Assembly: GCA_007136165.1 (NCBI GenBank)
Contig: SLHK01000121.1
Location: 1 to 25,683, forward strand
DNA from: Syntrophomonadaceae bacterium
GTDB taxonomy: Bacteria; Bacillota; Dethiobacteria; PWVN01
Reading direction: 5' to 3'
DNA: 25,683 nucleotides
A program made the position numbers and the translations under genes. Position 1 is the first letter of the stretch. Every line of letters begins with the position of its first letter. The notes beneath the pieces were generated by a model. That model did no database searches and had not been told where the DNA came from. It saw only the letters and a list, made by a program, of their open reading frames with translations. This document shows, in pieces, positions 14,141-25,373 of this stretch.

Positions 14141-14169
14141 TTGACAAAAAAGGAGGTCTGGGTTAAAAT
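14141..14169 (+). promoter_or_regulatory. sigA promoter of tRNA-Trp
   Basis: TTGACA, 17-nt spacer, TAAAAT, ending 11 nt upstream of the tRNA. Confidence 0.85.
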
Positions 14170-14180
14170 ATATGAAGCGC

Positions 14181-14256
14181 AGGGGAGTAGCTCAATTGGT
14201 AGAGTGGCGGTCTCCAAAACCGTTGGTTGCGGGTTCGAGTCCTGTCTCCCCTGCCA
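14181..14256 (+). tRNA. tRNA-Trp (anticodon CCA), encoded CCA end
   Basis: Cloverleaf: acceptor AGGGGAG/CTCCCCT, D-arm GCTC/GAGT, anticodon arm GCGGT-CTCCAAA-ACCGT, T-arm GCGGG-TTCGAGT-CCTGT, 3' GCCA. Confidence 0.97.
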
Positions 14257-14267
14257 GTAAAGAAATT

Positions 14268-14302
14268 AGGCTCCACAAGGGATTGTGGGGTTTTTTTCTT
14301 TT
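14268..14302 (+). terminator. Intrinsic terminator after tRNA-Trp
   Basis: CTCCACAA-GGGA-TTGTGGGG stem followed by TTTTTTTCTTTT. Confidence 0.8.
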
Positions 14303-14567: not shown

Positions 14568-16826
14568 CTACCTTACACCCAGAAGCAAAATTACCAGCAA
14601 AACCAACCAAACCACAACCAGGTCGAAATTATAGTTCATGGGGTTAATCATCTGGTAAAAAGGGTCTCCCTTGGTATCGTAATCCGCTTTGATAAAAGCT
14701 ACAAAGGTCCTGCGCATCAGGCGGTGCAGTTTTGCATCATAACAGGAAGCTAAGCGGCACCACCGGGAATATATTTTATCTTGTATTCCCACAGACAAGC
14801 GGGCCGCCGCCTGCCCTGCCCTGGTCAGGGTTACAGCATCAAAGTACGCCAGGCGCCGGGCCAGGGCTTTGAAAGGGATGCCGGATTGCACGTAGATGAC
14901 TTCAAACAGGTGGTCCAGGCCGCTGCCGATGCCGGTATACATTCTGGAGGCCTGCTTGAGAGCCACTTCCGTAAAGAAGCCGGCGGCTTTGCTTTCCCAG
15001 GCTGCCGTTCTGCTAAAAAGGGACGTAAACCAGGGCCCCGGTTTTACATAGGCCTTATCTACCCCTCTTTCCAGGGATGACCCCAGAAGGGTATACACCA
15101 GAACCGTTCCCCTGACAAGAGGTGTATACAGCAGGGACTCAATGCTGAGCCAGCGGGGGGGATGCCGGTAAAAGAGGCCGGTTTTACTAAAGAAAAGGTA
15201 AAAGATAACTCCCAGGGATAAGGCCGTACCAATGGCCAGCAGGTCGGGCCTGGCCCAAAAGTCCAGTTTTTCCAGATAGTTTACCCTGTAGGGGTCGAAT
15301 CCGAAACCTTCCGTTAAAGGAATAATGACACTGGTTAAAAGGAACTTGGGGAAGACTCCTGCAAGAATAACGGCGGCGGCAAAAAGCCCGAACACCAGTT
15401 TTTCCAACAGGGGTTCCGGCCCCACCTGCCCCCGGTCTTCCCTCTCCGGCCCAAAGAAGACGCCCAGGGTCAGTTTCAATATATAGCAGACGGTCAGGGC
15501 ACTGGTTATGACGAATATTTTTTCTGCATAGAGGAAAATCTGGCTGCCCTGATGGGCAGCTTCTTCCACGGCATGATGCAGCAGGGTTTTGCTGGCATAA
15601 CCGTTAAAGCCGGGGACGCCGGCAATCCCGCAGGCCGCCACCGCAAAACACAGGGACGTGACAGGAAACTTTCTCCACAGGCCTCCCAGGTGGTCCAGGT
15701 CCAGTTCATGGGTACGGGCATAGACGGCCCCCGCCATCATGAACATCCCGGCTTTGAAAAAGGCGTGGTTAAAGATGTGAAAGACCGTACCGGTAAATCC
15801 CATGGGCCCTTCCGGGCCCAGGTAGGCAGCACACCCGACCCCCATGAGAATATACCCCATTTGGCTGACACTGCTGTAGGCCAGTATCCTTTTGATGTTT
15901 GTCTGAAAGAGGGCGATGAACGCAGCCATGAACATGGTGGCTATTCCCGTCCACAGGATGACAAAACCCAAATTGCTGCTGGTACTTCCGAGAAAACCTC
16001 CGGTTTCCGGCGCGAAGGCCTGGGCGGCAACCCGCAGGATGCCGTAGGCTCCCGTCTTGATCATGATTCCCGACAGGAGGGCGCTGGCCGGCGAAGGGGC
16101 TACGGGGTGGGCTTTGGGAAGCCAGATGTGGACAGGGGCCATGCCGGCCTTAATGCCAAAGCCTAGAAGGAGGAATCCCGCTGTCAAGTAGCGCATATAT
16201 GCGGGAGCCGTCATGTCCTGAAACAGGGGTGCCAAAGAGACGCTGCCCGTGAAGGAATTGAGGAGCAATATTCCCGTAAGCAGGCTTAAGCCGCCCGCTA
16301 CTCCCAAAAAGAGATATAAGCGGCCGGCTTCCATGGCCTCTTCCGTTTCCGTATGCACCACCAGGGCATAGGATGCCAGGGACATGACTTCGAAGAAAAT
16401 AAAAAGGCTGAAGAGGTCTCCTGCAAGAAAAACCCCCAGGCAGCCCGCCTGGGTCAGGGAAAGAAAGGCGTAGTACCGGGGGCGGGCGTGTTCGTGCCCC
16501 ATGTAGGTTAAGGAGAAGAGGACGGCCAGGAACCATATGAAAGAAGATAAAAGGGTAAAGAAAGCCCCCAGGGGGCCGACGGAAAAATTCAGCCCCCAGC
16601 CCAAAAAACCGGGCAGAGCAAAAAAAGCCGCTTCCTCCCCCGCTTTAAGGTACAAAAGGGCGCTGAGAAAAAAGGTTATACCGGCAAAAAATACCGCCGT
16701 CAGATCCCGGGTGCTCTCTTTTCTCTTCTTTAAAAAGGGTACCAGAAAGGAAAAGGCAAGGGGCAGCAGGATAATAACGGGTGGTATTAGAGAAAATCCC
16801 GTGTCTTTTAGAAAATCCATATCCAC
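14568..16826 (-). CDS. Antiporter-like subunit 5 (MrpA/NuoL/HyfB-like) with extended lateral-helix region and terminal TM
   Basis: FFEVMS (TM5 Glu), GFGIKAG..PVHIWLPKAHP, GIMIKTG, HAFFKA and GYASKT motifs; 204-aa C-terminal tail ending in a hydrophobic helix. Confidence 0.9.
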   Translation of the reverse strand: MDMDFLKDTGFSLIPPVIILLPLAFSFLVPFLKKRKESTRDLTAVFFAGITFFLSALLYLKAGEEAAFFALPGFLGWGLNFSVGPLGAFFTLLSSFIWFLAVLFSLTYMGHEHARPRYYAFLSLTQAGCLGVFLAGDLFSLFIFFEVMSLASYALVVHTETEEAMEAGRLYLFLGVAGGLSLLTGILLLNSFTGSVSLAPLFQDMTAPAYMRYLTAGFLLLGFGIKAGMAPVHIWLPKAHPVAPSPASALLSGIMIKTGAYGILRVAAQAFAPETGGFLGSTSSNLGFVILWTGIATMFMAAFIALFQTNIKRILAYSSVSQMGYILMGVGCAAYLGPEGPMGFTGTVFHIFNHAFFKAGMFMMAGAVYARTHELDLDHLGGLWRKFPVTSLCFAVAACGIAGVPGFNGYASKTLLHHAVEEAAHQGSQIFLYAEKIFVITSALTVCYILKLTLGVFFGPEREDRGQVGPEPLLEKLVFGLFAAAVILAGVFPKFLLTSVIIPLTEGFGFDPYRVNYLEKLDFWARPDLLAIGTALSLGVIFYLFFSKTGLFYRHPPRWLSIESLLYTPLVRGTVLVYTLLGSSLERGVDKAYVKPGPWFTSLFSRTAAWESKAAGFFTEVALKQASRMYTGIGSGLDHLFEVIYVQSGIPFKALARRLAYFDAVTLTRAGQAAARLSVGIQDKIYSRWCRLASCYDAKLHRLMRRTFVAFIKADYDTKGDPFYQMINPMNYNFDLVVVWLVLLVILLLGVR

Positions 16827-16863: not shown

Positions 16864-18387
16864 CTAAAAGAAAGCTTTTACTCCCGCTTTAACAATCTCC
16901 AGGGGCCAGTTTACTGCCAGCAGCCCAAAGGCACCGCAGCCTATTGTCAAAATCAGGATGGGCAGGGCTGTCTTCCAGGAACCCGCCTTGAAGTCCCCTT
17001 GCCCCTCTCCTCTCGCCGCGGCAGTTTGCCTGAAGGCTTCCTCCTCCTCCTGTCCGTCCCCGTGGCCGGCAGGTACGCCAAAGAAGGCCTGGATGGCGAT
17101 GGGAAGGTAATAGGCAGCATTTAAAAAGCTGCTCACCAGCAGTACCCCCACCAGGACGGGCATCCCTTCTTCCAGGGCACCGAGACTTAAGTACCACTTG
17201 CTGATGAATACATTAAAGGGCGGCATCCCCACGGCTGTCAGGGCTGCCGCGGAAAAGCACAGCATAACCCCGGGCATTTGGTGCCCCGCTCCCTTCATTT
17301 CGCTGATTTTTCGGGTCCCCATGCCCCTGATAACGGCACCGGCGCAAAGAAACAGGGTCCCCTTCATAAAAGCGTGGGCCATAATATGGTATACAGCCCC
17401 CGCCACGGCCGCCTCCTGGAGCAGGGATATTCCCAGAATAATGTAACCTACCTGGGCAATACCCGAATAAGCCAGGCGGCGAATCAGGTCATCCTGGACC
17501 AGGGCGATGGCAGACCCCAACAATATACTTAAGGAGGCCAGGTAAATCAATGGCTGGGCCCAACCCGCCCCGGCCAGGAAGGAAAAGCCGTATACGTCCC
17601 CAAAGACCCGCAGCATGCCGTAAGCCCCGGTTTTTAACATTATGGCGGAGGAAATGACGGCAGCGGGCAGGGGTGCCCGGGCATAAGCATCGGGCATCCA
17701 GAAGTGCAGGGGAACGAGGGCGGCTTTGGTGCCAAAAGCCACCATGAAGCCGCAAAAAGCCAGCAAAGCCAGGGGGGAGGCCTCCGTAACCAAGCCTCCT
17801 TGACCCAGGGCCAGGCTTCCCGTTTCTCTTAAAATAATGACGGCGGATAAAAAGAGGGCTACCCCGGCCGTAATGGTCATAAAGAGGAACTTTAAGCCCG
17901 CCTTCAGGGAGGCCTCCGTCTGATGGTGAATAACCAGGACGAAAAACATCAGGGACATGAACTCGAAGAAGAGGTAGAAGGTGAAGAAGTCGCCGGCCAG
18001 GGCCACCCCGTAACATCCCCCCAGGGCCAGGAGCATGCAGGCAAAAAAACGGTCGGCTTTCTTGTCACCTTTCATGTACTGCTGGGCATAGATGCTGACC
18101 ACGAAACCGAAGAAGACAAAAAGCAGGAGCATATAGAAACCCAGGATATCCACCCGGTAGGAAAGCCCCAGGGGCGGCAGCAAATCGAAGGTTTTCTGCA
18201 GCTCCTCCCCCCGGCGAAGGGGGCCGTAGAGGAAGGCGGTTATAATCAACGGTATTAGGGTGGAAACTGTAATCAACCTTTCCTTAAGCCCTATGCTGCT
18301 TTTGCGTAATAGATAGAGGGCTCCGCCCCCCAGCAGGGGGGTTAAGACGATAAAAGAGATCAAGATGGTGGTCAGGGTCGGGTGCAT
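16864..18387 (-). CDS. mrpD: Antiporter-like subunit 4 (MrpD family)
   Basis: FFEFMS, GTKAALVPLHFWMPDAY, IMLKTG, HAFMKG and FISKW motifs. Start moved to ATG 18387 (GGAGG RBS, no overlap with the upstream gene). Confidence 0.9.
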   Translation of the reverse strand: MHPTLTTILISFIVLTPLLGGGALYLLRKSSIGLKERLITVSTLIPLIITAFLYGPLRRGEELQKTFDLLPPLGLSYRVDILGFYMLLLFVFFGFVVSIYAQQYMKGDKKADRFFACMLLALGGCYGVALAGDFFTFYLFFEFMSLMFFVLVIHHQTEASLKAGLKFLFMTITAGVALFLSAVIILRETGSLALGQGGLVTEASPLALLAFCGFMVAFGTKAALVPLHFWMPDAYARAPLPAAVISSAIMLKTGAYGMLRVFGDVYGFSFLAGAGWAQPLIYLASLSILLGSAIALVQDDLIRRLAYSGIAQVGYIILGISLLQEAAVAGAVYHIMAHAFMKGTLFLCAGAVIRGMGTRKISEMKGAGHQMPGVMLCFSAAALTAVGMPPFNVFISKWYLSLGALEEGMPVLVGVLLVSSFLNAAYYLPIAIQAFFGVPAGHGDGQEEEEAFRQTAAARGEGQGDFKAGSWKTALPILILTIGCGAFGLLAVNWPLEIVKAGVKAFF

Positions 18388-18406
18388 TATCTTTCCCTCC
18401 GCTTCC

Positions 18407-19879
18407 TCAAAATACGTGGGCAATAACCTTTTCCGCCAGAGGTATGGAAAGCTCATGGGCAAAGAGGCCCAGGGCAAAGCAGCAGGCCGTCAGGATTATG
18501 GTTGGTATGAGCATGGCGGGTGAAGTTTCCCAACCCCCGGGCCTTGTAAAGGTGCCCTGCCGAAAATAAGCATTAACCATAACAGGCAGGTAATAGGCGG
18601 CGTTTAAAAGGGCGCTGGCCAGGATCACAAAGGCAAAGACCGTCTTGCCCCCTCCCAGGCTGCCCTGGATTAAATAATACTTGCTGATAAAAGCGTTTAG
18701 AGGCAGGATGCCGATGAGCCCCAGGCCCGCCAGGCTGAAGCAGGCCATGGTCAGGGGCAGGCGCCGTCCGACTCCGTACAATTCTTCCAAACGGCTTTTC
18801 CCTGTCTCCTTGAGGATTTGCCCGGCGCAGAAGAACAGGGTAATTTTTAAAAAGGCATGGTTGATCAAATGGAGGATTCCTCCCGTCAAACCGGCTGGTG
18901 TTAAGAGAAGCGCCCCCAGAATGATGTATCCCAACTGGCCTATGGTGGAGTAGGCCAACCTTAGTTTTAATACACTTTGTCGCAGGGCCAGAATGGAGCC
19001 CAGGAGGATGGAGAGGGAAACCAGGACGGCCAGAATGTCTTGCAGGCCCAAAGACTCGATGACCGCCGGATTGTAGATGAAATAAAGAACCCGGATTACG
19101 CCGAAGGCCCCGCTTTTGACCACGGCAACGGCGTGCAGCAGGGCGCTGACGGGGGCCGGGGCCACCATGGCGCCGGGAAGCCAGGCATGCAGGGGGATGA
19201 CAGCCGCCTTGACGGCAAAGCCTGCAACCAGCAGGAGGAAGGCTCCCGCCAGCATTGTACGGTTCCCTTCCAGGAAGGGGGCCAGGCTTCCCCCCGGCTC
19301 AAAAGCCGCCCCCGGCACCAGGCTTTGCAGGGCAAAAAAGGCTGCCAGGATGAGGCCGCCCCCGGAAAGGCAGTAGATGATATAGCGGGTCCCCGATTTA
19401 AAGGCTTCGGTACTGCCGGAGTGAATTACCAGGGGATAGGTACACAGGGTCAAATACTCAAAAAAGACGTAAAGGCTGAACAGGTTCCCGGAAAAAGCCA
19501 CTCCCATGGTGGCGCTCATGGACAGGATGTAATAAAAGAAGTATCTTCCCTGACCCCCTTCCCCCTTCATGTATCCCAGGGAGTAAATGATGGCAAAAAT
19601 CCACAGGCTTCCGGCTACCAGGGCGAAGGCCATGCTCAGAGGGTCCGCCCTCAAGGTTAACTCCAGATTGGGTAAAAGGCGAAGGGGCGGTGACTGGGGG
19701 AGCTGCCCCTGCATTACCGGTGGAAGCAGGGATAACACCACGATTAAGTTCAGGCTAACCGTAAGCAGGGCAGCGACAGCCCTTTCCCTGTATTTATCTT
19801 CGGGAAGCACTAAAATGAGGAGGGCCCCCGCCAGGGGAATCAGAACAGCCAGGGCAGGCAAATAAGTATTGACAGCCAT
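18407..19879 (-). CDS. mrpD: Antiporter-like subunit 3 (MrpD family, AMVAP..LLHAVAVVK subtype)
   Basis: FFEYLT, AVKAAVIPLHAWLPGAMVAP, LLHAVAVVKSG, HAFLKI and FISKY motifs. Confidence 0.9.
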   Translation of the reverse strand: MAVNTYLPALAVLIPLAGALLILVLPEDKYRERAVAALLTVSLNLIVVLSLLPPVMQGQLPQSPPLRLLPNLELTLRADPLSMAFALVAGSLWIFAIIYSLGYMKGEGGQGRYFFYYILSMSATMGVAFSGNLFSLYVFFEYLTLCTYPLVIHSGSTEAFKSGTRYIIYCLSGGGLILAAFFALQSLVPGAAFEPGGSLAPFLEGNRTMLAGAFLLLVAGFAVKAAVIPLHAWLPGAMVAPAPVSALLHAVAVVKSGAFGVIRVLYFIYNPAVIESLGLQDILAVLVSLSILLGSILALRQSVLKLRLAYSTIGQLGYIILGALLLTPAGLTGGILHLINHAFLKITLFFCAGQILKETGKSRLEELYGVGRRLPLTMACFSLAGLGLIGILPLNAFISKYYLIQGSLGGGKTVFAFVILASALLNAAYYLPVMVNAYFRQGTFTRPGGWETSPAMLIPTIILTACCFALGLFAHELSIPLAEKVIAHVF

Positions 19880-19901
19880 CCGTTAAAATCCCCCTTCCTG
19901 C

Positions 19902-21380
19902 TTAAAAATGGTTAATCATGGTTCCGGCAATAAGGCGGGCCATCTCCAGGGGCCAGTTTGCGGGAGCCAGGGCAAAAACAAAGGTTCCCGCCGCCAGGAC
20001 TATTATGGGCGCCAGCATAACGGGGGGTGCTTCCAGGCTGTTTCCCCCCGTCTCTCCGGGTGGGGCAAAAAAGGCCGCCACCACAATAGGTAAATAATAA
20101 GCTGCATTCAAAAGACTGCTGATAATCAACAGGAAGACATATGCCGGCGCCCCCGCATCCAGGGCACCCAGGCTCAACAGCAGTTTGCTTAAAAAGCCGT
20201 TAAAGGGAGGAATACCCACCATGCTCAGGGCGGCCAGGGTGAAGCAGGCCATGGTCAGGGGCATCTTTAGGCCTATGCCCCCCAGATGGCTGATACGGCG
20301 CTTGCCCGTCTGCAAGATTATGGCTCCGGCGCAGAGAAAAAGGCAGCCCTTCATCATGGCATGGGCGAATATATGGAAAAGGGCTCCCGTTAAGGCCACC
20401 TCGGTCAGAAGGGACAGCCCCAGGTAAATGTAGCCGACCTGGGCGATGGTGGAGTAGGCCAGGCGCCTTTTTAAGTCATCCTGCCTTAAAGCCAGGGCGG
20501 AGCCCAAAAGGATGGTTATCACCGCCAGGGCCAGGGTTATCCTGTGCCACCCGGCCTGCTGGATCAAACCTATACTGAAGACCTCATAAAAAACCCGGAT
20601 GAGGCCGAAGACCCCGATTTTTACCATGACTCCCGACAGGAGAGCGCTGACGGGAGCCGGGGCTGCCGGGTGGGCATCGGGAAGCCATACATGGAGGGGA
20701 AAGGCCCCGGCCTTGATGCCAAAACCCGTAAGAAAACCCAAAAAGATGGCCAGGGTGAAGGGAGTTGCATCCGTAAGCAGGCCGCTGCTTCCGAAAGCCA
20801 GGTCTCCCGCCTCAAAGTAAAGGAGTATGGTGCTGAAAAAGACGGCAAACCCCGCTGCCATGGCCATATAGATGTATTTGCCCCCCGCAAACATGGCCGG
20901 GGGGTCTTCTTCGTGAATGACTAAAACATAAGAGGTGACGGCCATCAACTCAAAAAAGAGCAGCAGCCCCAGCATATCCCCCGCCATGACTATTCCCAGG
21001 CTAGCTCCCAGGGCTGCCAGCAGGAAGCCATAATAACGGTCAAGGGCGTGGTTATGGGCCATGTATGCCCGGGAGTAGATGACGGCCAGCACCCACAGGA
21101 AAGAAATCAGCAGTGCCATGGAGTAACCCAGATGGTCCACCCTGAAATGAATGGCCAGGGGAAAGGAAAAAAAGGTGTAAGCGGAAACTACCGGCCCTCC
21201 CTCTCTCAGGGCGGGATAAAGGGACAGGATTGTCAAGAAAACCAGTATTGAGGAAACCAGGGCAAACCCCTCTCCCCACCTCCTGTTCCGGCGCACCAGG
21301 AAAAATGCGGCTATGGAAGCAAGGAAGACAAAGGCTAAAATTATTACGGGAGCATCGGCCAGGGCCACCAAACTCAACAC
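19902..21380 (-). CDS. mrpD: Antiporter-like subunit 2 (MrpD family)
   Basis: FFELMA, GIKAGAFPLHVWLPDAHP, VMVKIG, DLKRRLAYST and GFLSKL motifs. Confidence 0.9.
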   Translation of the reverse strand: MLSLVALADAPVIILAFVFLASIAAFFLVRRNRRWGEGFALVSSILVFLTILSLYPALREGGPVVSAYTFFSFPLAIHFRVDHLGYSMALLISFLWVLAVIYSRAYMAHNHALDRYYGFLLAALGASLGIVMAGDMLGLLLFFELMAVTSYVLVIHEEDPPAMFAGGKYIYMAMAAGFAVFFSTILLYFEAGDLAFGSSGLLTDATPFTLAIFLGFLTGFGIKAGAFPLHVWLPDAHPAAPAPVSALLSGVMVKIGVFGLIRVFYEVFSIGLIQQAGWHRITLALAVITILLGSALALRQDDLKRRLAYSTIAQVGYIYLGLSLLTEVALTGALFHIFAHAMMKGCLFLCAGAIILQTGKRRISHLGGIGLKMPLTMACFTLAALSMVGIPPFNGFLSKLLLSLGALDAGAPAYVFLLIISSLLNAAYYLPIVVAAFFAPPGETGGNSLEAPPVMLAPIIVLAAGTFVFALAPANWPLEMARLIAGTMINHF

Positions 21381-21414: not shown

Positions 21415-21723
21415 TTAATGAGGAAATTCTTTTTTCCTCAGGGAAGCCAAGGTCAAGGTGACGGCCACAACGGCGGAGAATATAACCGTTGTTTCCAGGA
21501 AGGTATCGAAGGCCCGGTAGTTCAGCAATATGTTGCCCACCAGGTTGTAGCCCCCACTCTCTTCCACCCCTTTCTCCACATACCTCTGGCTGACGTAGTT
21601 GTTGGTGGGGTTCTGGGGGTCACCGTACAGGGGCAGCTCCATAACGGCCAGGAGCAGCAGGTAGTTAACGCTTATTACCAGGATCAGGACGACCAGATAA
21701 AAGGCCGCTTTATTACGCCGCAT
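21415..21723 (-). CDS. MbhE-like subunit (separately encoded MrpA C-terminal segment)
   Basis: NLVGNILLNYRAFDTFLET matches the MrpA/MbhE N.V..IL.D(F/Y)R..DT..E motif. Confidence 0.85.
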   Translation of the reverse strand: MRRNKAAFYLVVLILVISVNYLLLLAVMELPLYGDPQNPTNNYVSQRYVEKGVEESGGYNLVGNILLNYRAFDTFLETTVIFSAVVAVTLTLASLRKKEFPH

Positions 21724-21965
21724 CAGTGGGGCCTCCTTCCCACCCTGCTGACCACTGCCACCATGAGAATGGTGGTGGCTATACCTACCGCCGCTTCCGT
21801 AATGGCAATGTCAGGGGCATTGAGTTTCTGCCATACCAGGGCCATGACAGCGCTGTAAACGCCAAAGATAATGATAATGTAGAGCAAATCCTTAAAAATA
21901 AAGACGGAGAAGGTTACCAGGAGCAGGACCAGGAGCAGCAAAAACAAGACAGGATCCAGCGGCAT
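21723..21965 (-). CDS. DUF4040 / MbhD-like subunit (separately encoded MrpA segment)
   Basis: LNAPDIAITEAAVG motif, 3 TM. ATG 21965 preferred (GGGGTG RBS); GTG 21974 is possible. Confidence 0.87.
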   Translation of the reverse strand: MPLDPVLFLLLLVLLLVTFSVFIFKDLLYIIIIFGVYSAVMALVWQKLNAPDIAITEAAVGIATTILMVAVVSRVGRRPH

Positions 21966-21970
21966 AGGCG

Positions 21971-22306
21971 TCACCCCCGGCCTTTCCTGGAGTAATTGTC
22001 TTCATACCAGGTAGCGGGAGCCACTGCATCTTTCCGGTCATAAGCTGTCTTGGCAATTAAGTGGGTCATAACGGGGTTGATGGTGGCAATCAGGCCGCCG
22101 ATTAACACCACTTTGACGCCACTGGTAAAATCGGGCACGATAAAAAGTATGGCAAAAAGAATCAACCCGGCCCCCAGGGTATCGCATTTACCCATGGCGT
22201 GCATGCGGGTAAAGATATCAGGCAGGCGAAGCATTCCCACAGCTCCCACCATCAGGAAGAAGAATCCCCAGAGAAGGCTTAAGGCAATCACGATATCGGT
22301 GAACAC
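21971..22306 (-). CDS. mrpG: Mrp antiporter subunit G
   Basis: GMLRLPDIFTRMHAMGKCDTLG and NPVMTHLIAK motifs. Confidence 0.93.
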   Translation of the reverse strand: MFTDIVIALSLLWGFFFLMVGAVGMLRLPDIFTRMHAMGKCDTLGAGLILFAILFIVPDFTSGVKVVLIGGLIATINPVMTHLIAKTAYDRKDAVAPATWYEDNYSRKGRG

Positions 22307-22321
22307 GGGAGATCCCCCCTT

Positions 22322-22594
22322 TTACAGTTTTCCTTCTTCCAGGAGACGCAGCACTCCCAGGGTGGCCACAAAGGCCCCCAGGACAAAAACCAGGGCTACA
22401 TCCAGGTAAAGGTTGATCTCTGCATACGGGGCGCTCAGCAAGACCAGCATGACTATCAGGGAGACAGCATAGTTGATAGCCACCACCCGGTCGGCAGCTG
22501 AAGGGCCAATAAATGACCTGATGAGGACCAGGATGAGGATAAAAACCAGTCCATACCGGAGAAAGGTTAACAGAGATTCAATCACTTTTCCCAC
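22322..22594 (-). CDS. mrpF: Mrp antiporter subunit F
   Basis: GPSAADRVVA and YLDVAL motifs; 3 TM. Confidence 0.92.
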   Translation of the reverse strand: MGKVIESLLTFLRYGLVFILILVLIRSFIGPSAADRVVAINYAVSLIVMLVLLSAPYAEINLYLDVALVFVLGAFVATLGVLRLLEEGKL

Positions 22595-23093
22595 TTCCCT
22601 CCAATTTTTTCATCTGGTGATACAAAGGCCAGTGCTGGACCGCCTCGGCATTCTCCCGGGTGAAGCAGTGGACCACCAGGCGGTCTTCTTCACATTCCAC
22701 CGTTATGGTACCGGGGGTCAAGGTAATGGAATTGAGAAACAAAGCCTTGGAAAGGTCTTTTTCCAGGCCCAACCTGTAGGTGACAAAGCCCGGGCTGATG
22801 GGCATACGGGGATGAAGGACCAGGTAGGCCACATAAACGTTGGCTTTAACCACTTCAATCCCCAGGGAGACCAGATATACCAGAAGCCGGAGGGCCTGCC
22901 CCGGGGTAAAACGGGTCCCTCCTTCCCGGATGAAAATAACATCTGCCCAAAAGGTCATCAAGAGGAAGGAAATTACTGTCCCCATGAGAATATGCTGCCA
23001 GTCAAAGCTGGCGGATATCAAGAGCCAAAAAACCAGCAATAGAAAGGATAAAAAGACAAACCCCACCGGATCCTTTTTAATGTGCCTGAACAC
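22578..23093 (-). CDS. mrpE: Mrp antiporter subunit E
   Basis: EVVKANVYVA, PISPGFV, NSITLTPGTIT and VVHC motifs. GTG 23093 preferred (RBS present) over TTG 23126. Confidence 0.92.
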   Translation of the reverse strand: MFRHIKKDPVGFVFLSFLLLVFWLLISASFDWQHILMGTVISFLLMTFWADVIFIREGGTRFTPGQALRLLVYLVSLGIEVVKANVYVAYLVLHPRMPISPGFVTYRLGLEKDLSKALFLNSITLTPGTITVECEEDRLVVHCFTRENAEAVQHWPLYHQMKKLEGSGKSD

Positions 23094-23122
23094 TCCATCA
23101 CCCCCCGGTTTTTTATCTTTTG

Positions 23123-24619
23123 TCAAGGAAAGAAAACGGGTTCCACGGCCCCGCTGATAAGACTAAGGATTGGGGCAGGGAACAAACCCAGGTACAAAAT
23201 CCCGCAAGCCAGGAGAACAACCGGCGCCAACAGGGGCAAGGGTATTCGGTCCATGACCACCTTTTCCTTCTGATTTCCGGTAAAGTAAGCCTGCCATATT
23301 ATGGGTAAGTAATACATGGCGTTTAAGAGGCCGCTTAGGACAATCAGGGCAACCAGGCCCCGGCTGCCTGCCTCGATACTTCCCATGGCCAGGGCATATT
23401 TGGTGATAAAGCCGGCAAAAATGGGAATTCCCACCATCGATAAGGCAGCTACGGTGAAGGAAGCCATGGTGACGGGCATAATTCGCCCTAAACCTGAAAA
23501 CAGGGTAACATTTCTCTTCCCCGTTTGAAAAAGGATATTGCCGGCGGCCATGAAGAGGCAAACCTTCATGAAGGCATGAACTACCACATGCATCAAGGCC
23601 GCCTTTATACCCCAGGGCGTACCCAGGCTTAAGCCCAAAAAGATATACCCCACCTGGGATACGGTGGAATAGGCCAGGCGCCTTTTTAAGTCTTTTTGTG
23701 TAAAAGCAAAAATGGAACCGGCCACAATAGCCATAGCCGACATGCCTGTGATCAGGCCGGCAATATTCATTTCCGCCAGGATGCCGGGGCCAAAAACACC
23801 GTAGAGAATTTTAAAGAAGGCCATGATGTAGATTTTGACCACCAGTCCGGACAGCAGGGCGCTGGAAGGGAAAGGCGCTGAGGAGTGGGCATCGGGGAGC
23901 CAGATGTGGAGAGGGAAAAGGGCTGCCTTGAGGCTGAATCCCACCAGCAAAAAACCCATGGTGGTCCAGATGACAAAAGGAAAGCTGTCCCGAGTACCTT
24001 CCAGTTCAATTGCTATAAAGGGAATGTTGAGGTTTCCTGTTATGGTATATAGGAATCCAATGGCAAACACGATAAAGCCCGATCCTATGGTGGCCAGCAG
24101 AAGGTATTTAAGGGATGCTTCTGTGGCCTCTTTGGTGCCTTTGGCAATGATGAGGGCACAGGAAGCCAGGCCTACAATCTCCAGGAACACATAAAGGTTG
24201 AAAATATCATTTGTAACCACCATTCCCGTCATGCCCGTCATTAACAGGAGGTATGCGGTATAATACCAACCTGCTTTTTGATCCGGGATTTCTCTCTCCA
24301 GGCTGTTCAAACTGTAGATGGCTATTAAAAAACAAAACCCCGTTATCAAGGCTATCATCAGGGCTGCCAGGAGGTTAATGTGGAGCTCTATGCCCCAGGG
24401 AGGCTCAAAGCCGCCCAAATATATGCTGTAACTGCCCCCTCTATGTACGTCGTATAGCAGAAAAAGGGAAAAGAAAAAACTGAACCCTGTAACCACCGCT
24501 ACAATGGGTCCGCACAATGACCTCTTCCACCGGGCGAAGATGGGGAGCAGAAATGCAATTACCAGAGAAAAAATGATGATTACCATGGGAATTCTGTCAG
24601 TAAGCAAGGCTCCTGTCAC
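23123..24619 (-). CDS. mrpD: Antiporter-like subunit 1 (MrpD)
   Basis: DIFNLYVFLEI, LKAALFPLHIWLPDAHS, LVVKI, DLKRRLAYST and GFITKY motifs; GTGA overlap with mrpC. Confidence 0.93.
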   Translation of the reverse strand: MTGALLTDRIPMVIIIFSLVIAFLLPIFARWKRSLCGPIVAVVTGFSFFFSLFLLYDVHRGGSYSIYLGGFEPPWGIELHINLLAALMIALITGFCFLIAIYSLNSLEREIPDQKAGWYYTAYLLLMTGMTGMVVTNDIFNLYVFLEIVGLASCALIIAKGTKEATEASLKYLLLATIGSGFIVFAIGFLYTITGNLNIPFIAIELEGTRDSFPFVIWTTMGFLLVGFSLKAALFPLHIWLPDAHSSAPFPSSALLSGLVVKIYIMAFFKILYGVFGPGILAEMNIAGLITGMSAMAIVAGSIFAFTQKDLKRRLAYSTVSQVGYIFLGLSLGTPWGIKAALMHVVVHAFMKVCLFMAAGNILFQTGKRNVTLFSGLGRIMPVTMASFTVAALSMVGIPIFAGFITKYALAMGSIEAGSRGLVALIVLSGLLNAMYYLPIIWQAYFTGNQKEKVVMDRIPLPLLAPVVLLACGILYLGLFPAPILSLISGAVEPVFFP

Positions 24620-24984
24620 CTCATCTTCATAAGCTCTGAAACATGGACAGTTCCATAGAAGCGATACAGGCTGACAATCATGGCCAGGGCAAAAGCCGTG
24701 ACACTAAAGCTAACCACGATACCGGTGAGAATCAGGGCCTGGGGCAAGGGGTTCACATACAGGACACCGCCTGTAGCAGGGTTGACAATGGGCGGGGCTC
24801 CTCCGGAGATGTTGCCGACGGCAATAAAAAAGAGAAAGATGGCTGTTTCCATGACATTTAAACCTATTACTTTCTTAATCAGGTTTGGTTGGGTCAAGAC
24901 GATTAAGCATCCCATACTGAATAAGAGAATGGAAACAAAGTAAGGGAAATTGGCCAGCAGCATGAACACGTCCAGCTCTCTCAC
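24616..24984 (-). CDS. mrpC: Mrp antiporter subunit C (NuoK-like)
   Basis: NLIKKVIGL and NPLPQALILTGIVV motifs. Confidence 0.94.
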   Translation of the reverse strand: MRELDVFMLLANFPYFVSILLFSMGCLIVLTQPNLIKKVIGLNVMETAIFLFFIAVGNISGGAPPIVNPATGGVLYVNPLPQALILTGIVVSFSVTAFALAMIVSLYRFYGTVHVSELMKMR

Positions 24985-25373
24985 CTTCCATCCTCCTCTA
25001 CCAGCAGATAGTACATGGTAACCAGGGAACTGGCTACCAGGAGCCCGATGGCTAAACTCATAAGGGAAATGAGGCCGACACTGAAAAGCTCCCCCGGCGT
25101 CCCGTAGCCTTCTTTGGGCGGCAAAAAGAATTTAATTCCTTCGACGGCACCGCCTATGCCGATGAAGACAATTGCCAGGTGCTGGGGAAGCCTCTTGGAG
25201 CCCAGGTTAACACCAAATATGAGAATATAAAGCACCATGCCCAACCCCAGCACTATTCCCCCGGCAAAACCTCCCCCCGGGGACAGGTGGCCGTGAAATA
25301 TCACATAAAAGGCATAAACCTGTATGAAGAGAAGCACATACCGAAAAACGATCCTCACGACGAAATCCTTCAT
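24981..25373 (-). CDS. mrpB: Mrp antiporter subunit B (MnhB domain)
   Basis: YVIFHGHLSPGGGFAGG motif; first gene of the operon. Confidence 0.92.
   Translation of the reverse strand: MKDFVVRIVFRYVLLFIQVYAFYVIFHGHLSPGGGFAGGIVLGLGMVLYILIFGVNLGSKRLPQHLAIVFIGIGGAVEGIKFFLPPKEGYGTPGELFSVGLISLMSLAIGLLVASSLVTMYYLLVEEDGR

Follow-up and report, generated by a model that had tools for sequence, protein, structure and literature searches.

We analyzed positions 1 to 25,683 of contig SLHK01000121.1 from a Syntrophomonadaceae bacterium (GenBank assembly GCA_007136165.1), a stretch of 25,683 nucleotides referred to here as the window, with a focus on the last gene of a minus-strand, 12-gene operon that runs from 25373 down to 14568 and is predicted to encode a Mrp-type complex. 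The protein encoded by this gene is NuoL/MrpA-like, and its tail has been lengthened by internal duplication of a 52-residue unit, an event that is ancient. We consider it probable that the C-terminal 200 residues are a modular form of the brace of NuoL/MrpA-type subunits, that is, transmembrane helix (TM) 15, lateral helix (HL) and TM16, in which the number of repeats is labile and the anchor is constrained. In complex I and Mrp, the lateral helix is commonly regarded as a brace of fixed length, one that is assumed to scale with the number of pump modules, at about 26 amino acids (aa) each. The features of the last subunit are as follows.

14568..16826, minus strand: gene of the last antiporter-like subunit, NuoL/MrpA-like, a 752-aa open reading frame (ORF) from GTG (PF00361, 1.7e-63; MrpA/NuoL fold, Z 46-47)
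15180..15251, minus strand: TM15, residues 526-549 (AlphaFold helix with predicted local distance difference test, pLDDT, above 90; hydropathy peak)
15045..15143, minus strand: first tail helix, residues 562-594, at the start position of the lateral helix in NuoL/MrpA (superposition on NuoL/MrpA; pLDDT 77-88)
14943..15098, minus strand: copy A of the 52-aa unit, residues 577-628 (helix break at K595/P596; DSSP break at 595)
14787..14942, minus strand: copy B of the 52-aa unit, residues 629-680 (helix break at 646-650, VQSGI followed by P651; pLDDT 39-59 around 610-660)
14691..14786, minus strand: remaining amphipathic basic helix, residues 681-712, segment C (mean hydrophobic moment 0.48, net charge +5)
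14622..14690, minus strand: anchor motif IKADYDTKGDPFYQxINPxNYNFD, residues 713-735, just before the last TM (near-invariant)
14571..14621, minus strand: terminal TM, equivalent to TM16, residues 736-752 (AlphaFold helix 734-751; hydropathy peak)

The true start of the subunit is probably the ATG at 16820, because the database cluster representative (P0002) is 750 aa long. A preliminary description of the locus had placed an amphipathic stretch of about 185 residues after TM15, followed by one terminal TM, and had pointed to two similar 35-residue segments spaced 52 aa apart. Both observations are borne out: ~186 residues separate TM15 from the terminal TM, with the two membrane helices at 526-549 and 734-751, and residues 577-611 (nt 15098-14994) align without gaps to residues 629-663 (nt 14942-14838) at 12/35 identities and a BLOSUM62 score of 47.

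Several lines of evidence confirm that the similarity reflects duplication. (i) When residues 549-735 are aligned locally with themselves, the top off-diagonal score is 54, compared with 25.7 ± 4.1 for shuffled sequences, of which 0/300 reached 54 (maximum 43). (ii) Family profiles of copy A (about residues 570-627) and copy B (about residues 622-679) align in register with hhalign over 49 columns, with a probability of 97.3%, an E value of 2.2e-11 and a score of 50.3; column-shuffled profiles score 6.9 ± 1.3. (iii) A hidden Markov model (HMM) of the 52-aa unit finds two copies in the tail, at about 561-626 and 623-678. The helix breaks fall at a G-x-P that is conserved at an equivalent position in both copies. 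It could be argued that there was no true duplication and that two amphipathic helices came to look alike through common composition and helical periodicity, given that identity is only 34% over 35 residues and that residue shuffling does not keep helical periodicity. However, the profile-profile E value of 2e-11 was obtained in exact register, the neighboring amphipathic segment C scores at the null level, and orthologues differ by whole units (1, 1.5, 2 and 3 copies). These observations refute a chance similarity, and we regard that explanation as having almost no likelihood.

The weaker third echo that had been proposed downstream of the two copies, in segment C, is marginal at best. The comparison of A with C gave an hhalign score of 14.2, above the null maximum of 11.8, and that of B with C gave 8.8, equal to the null. 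On these scores a full third copy at residues 681-712 is not supported. A recent DNA duplication was also ruled out: no 156-nt direct repeat remains at the DNA level, and the duplication is therefore old. Searches with the tail gave no significant Pfam or PDB sequence match, and a language-model atlas search returned only unnamed short proteins.

The AlphaFold2 monomer model of the last subunit, based on a 76-sequence alignment, has a mean pLDDT of 87.3. Residues 12-594 of the model superpose on residues 1-569 of E. coli NuoL and 1-591 of MrpA at 2.5-3.0 Å (Z 46-47), and also on other ND5/Nqo12 chains; across all chains Z is 44-47 at 2.5-3 Å. Because of this superposition, the first tail helix falls in the lateral-helix position of NuoL/MrpA, as expected from the preliminary assignment of the tail to a NuoL-type lateral-helix region. 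By sequence, the MrpA profile PRK12645 aligns to residues 17-564, and the core is closest to MbhH/MrpD. The helices predicted in the tail span residues 562-594, 596-645 and 651-716, followed by a short helix at 722-727 and the TM at 734-751; pLDDT is 77-88 over residues 561-600, 39-59 over 610-660 and 62-82 over 660-710.

The linker between TM15 and the terminal TM has a mean helical hydrophobic moment of 0.34, about 4 standard deviations above shuffled sequences (0.225 ± 0.028), which corresponds to moderate amphipathicity. Its net charge is +10, and 15% of its residues are aromatic. A linker that is amphipathic, basic and aromatic suits a helix lying on the cytoplasmic membrane surface. Thus, the elements of a NuoL/MrpA-type TM15-HL-TM16 arrangement are present, namely a PF00361 core of 14 TMs, a helix leaving the core in the lateral-helix position, and a long amphipathic helix ending in one anchoring TM. 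In the solved Mrp structure, HL connects TMH15 with TMH16, acts as a brace for the complex and ties the TMH7s together (PMC7419157).

The tail is rare in public protein libraries, with 8 relatives identified in a word-seeded search and 74 in an exhaustive profile search of 1.84 billion representatives. It is matched in 106/149 genomes of one Bacillota class, and the named records that carry it are Syntrophomonadaceae and Dethiobacter metagenome-assembled genomes (MAGs). Isolate labels of these records, such as CSSed and T1Sed, may denote soda-lake sediment samples. A tail of the window type (E about 1e-100) is missing from the four remaining genomes of the window's own family and occurs in genomes from three other families (G011, G018, G079, G086). 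This patchy spread of the five-module operon could reflect gene transfer or incomplete MAGs.

When tail length is counted from the residue aligned to residue 520, the relatives fall into classes of 121, 133-140, 162-172, 180-187, 200-213, 225-241, 246-252, 259-278, 286-287 and 300-303 aa. A periodicity analysis of all tail lengths gave only a broad peak at 22-25 aa. The 52-aa-unit HMM resolves the series more directly, with one copy in tails of 180-185 aa, ~1.5 in those of 204-211 aa, two in those of 229-235 aa and three in those of 287 aa, and tail alignments of orthologues contain unit-sized insertions and deletions with clean edges. In the core-domain tree, the window's clade has two copies, and the 210-211-aa forms are nested within it and so represent a secondary loss. 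The sister clade includes 182-aa and 287-aa forms as close relatives. For the three-copy protein P0011, and also for P0040 and P0069, the contigs are too short to give operon context, and ten more contigs of the class all end at or within the gene.

Conservation within the tail is strongly uneven. Among two-copy orthologues, mean pairwise identity is 67% in the core, 25-28% in the copies and 87% in the anchor motif, which compares with 25-36% in the rest of the tail. The motif is invariant in an eight-sequence alignment (A1), and its N..N.FD core is kept in distant lineages, for example as NIKNLNFD. The motif is probably the docking element of the strap. The best reading of this pattern is that the anchor is the constrained part and that repeat number changes easily.

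Operons were parsed in about 90 related loci, with antiporter-like modules counted from genes in cis. In the window's lineage, in which tails are amphipathic, three-module operons with the order B-C-D-E-F-G-MbhD-MbhE-D-L (L, the NuoL/MrpA-like subunit) have 121-aa tails without the unit. Operons of the five-module type, B-C-D-E-F-G-MbhD-MbhE-D-D-D-L, carry 184-185-aa tails with one copy (L048 and L069; L068 likewise, cut at its start), a 210-aa tail with 1.5 copies (L001/L005), or 233-235-aa tails with two copies (the window, L093 and L097). Seven-module operons (L044, L046) end in a subunit with a 185-aa, one-copy tail. In a sister lineage of the same class, in which tails are hydrophilic, 16 three-module operons of the order E-F-G-MbhD-MbhE-B-C-D-D-L have tails of 200-303 aa. 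Tail length and the number of modules in cis give a Spearman's rho of -0.44 over 28 complete operons, -0.40 in the hydrophilic lineage and +0.69 in the amphipathic lineage (n=9), where the step from three to five modules alone accounts for it. The loci in these tests are related to each other, so p-values mean little.

These data bear on the proposal, made in the preliminary description, that the brace grew in step with the number of modules and is evidence for a single long complex. On this view, the 52-aa duplication (2 x 26 aa) would be what allows one strap to span five modules. Some observations favor it. According to PMC9040806, complex I variants have a 26-aa HL insertion per added pump, and 52 aa is twice that length. 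Three modules are paired with 121-aa tails lacking the unit, and five or more with tails that have at least one copy, the contrast behind the rho of +0.69 in nine related operons. The three predicted helices total ~149 residues, or by our own arithmetic roughly 220 Å if collinear, which is of the order of five modules. The step from zero copies (121 aa) to one copy (184-185 aa) amounts to about +60 aa and comes with two more modules, in agreement with the published figure of 26 aa per added pump (about 2 x 26).

The duplication itself follows a different pattern. The second copy adds 52 aa, about 75 Å as a helix, with no added module in cis: one five-module operon type carries 1, 1.5 or 2 copies, and seven-module operons carry terminal subunits with one copy. 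Equally long tails in loci with only two or three antiporter subunits, the finding that the preliminary description had named as refuting its reading, do occur, in the 16 three-module operons of the sister lineage. The correlation of tail length with module number across loci came out negative overall. Growth of the brace with module number therefore holds for the step from zero to one copy, from three modules to five or more, and fails for the duplication. The further claim, that tail length gives independent support for a single long multi-module complex, was not borne out, because equally long tails occur in three-module loci. The proposal that strap length matches module number is largely refuted by these decoupled loci and would be rescued only if two-copy complexes contained extra modules encoded elsewhere; we judge it improbable.

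A mechanism consistent with the observations can be outlined for a modular brace of labile repeat number. Most relatives carry a single copy of a 52-residue helix-kink-helix unit, interrupted at the conserved G-x-P, and one duplication in the ancestor of the window's clade produced the three amphipathic helices predicted here, which are 33, 50 and 66 residues long. The resulting strap would run over the cytoplasmic side of the membrane, past the four MrpD-like subunits, and would dock through the conserved motif and the last TM at the MrpC/MbhD/MbhE end. The one-copy linker is about 138 aa long, or 5.3 x 26 aa, and may already be long enough for five modules; if so, the second copy would add about 75 Å of slack or extra reach that is not matched to added modules. 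Repeat number would then drift under weak constraint, with the anchor under strong constraint.

Five points weigh against this interpretation. (i) The rigid superposition on NuoL ends at the kink at residue 595, and the course of the later helices is not fixed by the model. (ii) The pLDDT drops to 39-59 across residues 610-660. (iii) Complete operons are few, with three two-copy and three one-copy five-module examples that are mutually related. (iv) Only genes in cis were counted, and modules encoded elsewhere could join the complex; the window's own genome has several long-tailed subunits of a second Mrp cluster on other contigs. (v) Both copies have been retained for a long time, so the second could have a function of its own.

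Alternatively, the extra unit, or most of the tail, may turn back on itself and form an antiparallel helical hairpin or bundle at the cytoplasmic face. The span of the strap would then be unchanged, and the added helices could make it stiffer, recruit a partner or bring one complex into contact with another. An insertion of 52 aa in helix-kink-helix form can begin and finish at one point, the G-x-P break is conserved at an equal position in each copy, and the conserved anchor motif implies one docking site at any copy number. In addition, with a mean hydropathy of -0.5 to -0.8 and about 30% charged residues, the sister-lineage repeats are hydrophilic, and they extend in 25-aa steps far beyond the need of three modules. 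On the other hand, in their amphipathic and fairly hydrophobic character the window copies resemble canonical straps and differ from the hydrophilic lineage; AlphaFold gives continuous helices of 50 and 66 residues rather than short hairpins; and no fold match to a bundle was obtained. We view a folded-back tail as rather unlikely, although it is the strongest of the competing explanations.

The sister-lineage repeats are informative in their own right. They are 25 aa long, hydrophilic and about 30% charged, unlike the canonical lateral helix, and in the three-module operons of this lineage (L047-L061, L064, L065, L070, L071) the tails of the last subunit are quantized at 200, 225, 250, 275 and 300 aa. 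One example, P0052, adjoins Rnf genes, and repeat tails of this type also occur on contigs C212 and C22 of the window's own genome. Like the tail of the window, these NuoL/MrpA-like tails sit between TM15 and the last TM, open with P-x-W-L-S-[IV]-E and close with N..N.FD. They differ in having 6-10 copies of a crisp hydrophilic repeat and only three modules, whereas the unit in the window is 52 aa long, amphipathic and much diverged. An HMM of the 25-aa unit, built from the crisp sister-lineage repeats, did not detect the window copies. The first half of the window unit matched the 25-aa unit with an hhalign P of 0.0016 and a probability of 16%, and no other part matched; a 26-aa sub-period in the window tail is thereby suggested.

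A further reading is that the strap acts as a molecular ruler of module-width units (25-26 aa, paired as 52), and that the decoupling from module number is only apparent, either because modules encoded in trans or D-D-D-L cassettes join the complex or because surplus length reaches a neighboring complex to form arrays. If this were true, a two-copy strap would mark a seven-module or linked assembly. We regard this reading as improbable.

In the window's own genome, a second Mrp-type cluster is found on contig C212 (L042, 107-5274), where C-D-D is followed by a long-tailed subunit that is cut by the contig end and has crisp 25-aa repeats (FDxxIDxxYxxSG...). On contig C22 (L041, 3-4835), a 150-aa open fragment is followed by long-tailed subunits of 617 and 706 aa. 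The two contigs probably hold one C-D-D-L-L-L operon split between them. Across related genomes (L011, L013, L015-L019, L023, L024, L027, L032, L034, L066, L067; L014/L081, L009; L044, L046), the D-D-D-L cassette occurs in four contexts: behind B-C-D-E-F-G-MbhD-MbhE, as in the window; following another long-tailed subunit (tails of 184 and 204 aa), in divergent orientation to B-C-D-E-F-G-MbhD-MbhE; in convergent orientation to a complete three-module operon; and appended to a three-module operon, giving seven modules and two straps. The cassette behaves as a movable four-module block.

The gene order of the operon in the window is MrpB, MrpC, D1, MrpE, MrpF, MrpG, MbhD-like, MbhE-like, D2, D3, D4 and the 752-aa last large subunit. 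PF00361 matches all five large proteins, giving five antiporter-like modules, four MrpD-like ones and the last subunit. The genes upstream of the last subunit are as follows.

24616..25373, minus strand: MrpC (NuoK-like) and MrpB homologues at the operon start (NCBIfam antiporter subunit C, 8.4e-32; subunit B, 7.3e-19)
23123..24619, minus strand: D1, the first MrpD-like module (PF00361, 5.9e-62)
21971..23126, minus strand: MrpG, MrpF and MrpE homologues (PF03334, PF04066, PF01899)
21415..21974, minus strand: MbhE-like and MbhD-like small subunits (PF20501, PF13244; align to ~600-800 of MrpA profiles)
16864..21380, minus strand: D4, D3 and D2, MrpD-like modules directly upstream of the last subunit (PF00361, 1.8e-58, 4e-52 and 8.1e-64)
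19902-21380, minus strand: D2, MrpD-like ORF
18407-19879, minus strand: D3, MrpD-like ORF
16864-18477, minus strand: D4, longest ORF

The longest ORF of D4 overlaps the end of D3 (18407-18477), and the true start of D4 is probably an internal ATG near 18387, giving about 507 aa. A tRNA-Trp (CCA) gene lies on the plus strand at 14181-14293, convergent with the operon end; its promoter, close to consensus, is at 14141-14169, and a hairpin resembling a terminator is at 14268-14293.

Profiles of MrpA match the MbhD-like and MbhE-like proteins over their C-terminal portion, and MrpA is therefore split in the window, with its C-terminal domain encoded by these two separate genes. In canonical MrpA of groups 1 and 2, the C-terminal domain (TM17-21, MrpB-like) is fused after TM16; here the protein stops after its last TM. 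Homologues of all subunits A-G are nevertheless present in one irregularly ordered cluster, with four D subunits, an A-like N-terminal domain and the A C-terminal domain as MbhD/MbhE. Judged by gene content, the operon would encode a stand-alone Mrp-type complex with five antiporter-like modules, predicted to be a sodium/proton antiporter, and it fits group 3 Mrp (CPA3). Clusters of that group are irregularly ordered and carry at least two mrpD genes (PMC5703873). The window shares with them all subunit types, the irregular order and the multiplied mrpD, and differs in having five large subunits rather than two or three, and in a NuoL-like subunit that is split from its C-terminal domain and carries a repeat-built strap.

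Compared with the HL and TM15/TM16 of MrpA (PDB entries 7qru_A, 6z16_A and 7d3u_A; PMC7419157), the last subunit has in common a 14-TM core, TM15, a cytoplasmic amphipathic helix and an anchoring TM; its model superposes on MrpA 1-591 at 2.5 Å (Z 47.5), and its operon includes MrpB, C, D, E, F and G homologues. The linker of ~186 aa with its duplicated 52-aa unit sets the window apart, as it is only ~74 aa in its own three-module relatives, which lack the unit. The window also differs in having the C-terminal domain on separate MbhD-/MbhE-like genes and four MrpD-like partners rather than one.

A second point of comparison is complex I of the 2M type, for which PMC9040806 describes a 26-aa insertion in the NuoL lateral helix of the Nitrospira 2M complex I (Chadwick et al. 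2018) and of Manganitrophaceae Complex_I_3, both variants with extra pumps. Both systems have a strap lengthened by a module-sized quantum (26 aa there, 52 aa, a multiple of it, in the window) and more than three antiporter-like subunits. The insertion described there co-occurs with an added NuoM, whereas the duplication in the window varies on one five-module operon type; only the step from zero to one copy, from three to five modules, corresponds to the complex I case. The window complex is moreover a stand-alone Mrp type with no redox module.

In this family the strap is built from repeats, and the number of units shifts among close relatives without a change in pump genes. Therefore, strap length alone cannot give subunit stoichiometry. 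The motif ahead of the last TM, being strongly conserved, marks a part that is probably functionally critical. The natural copy series, with 1, 1.5 and 2 copies on one five-module operon type and 3 in a relative, could be used to test whether the role of the strap lies in mechanical coupling, in assembly or in tethering only.

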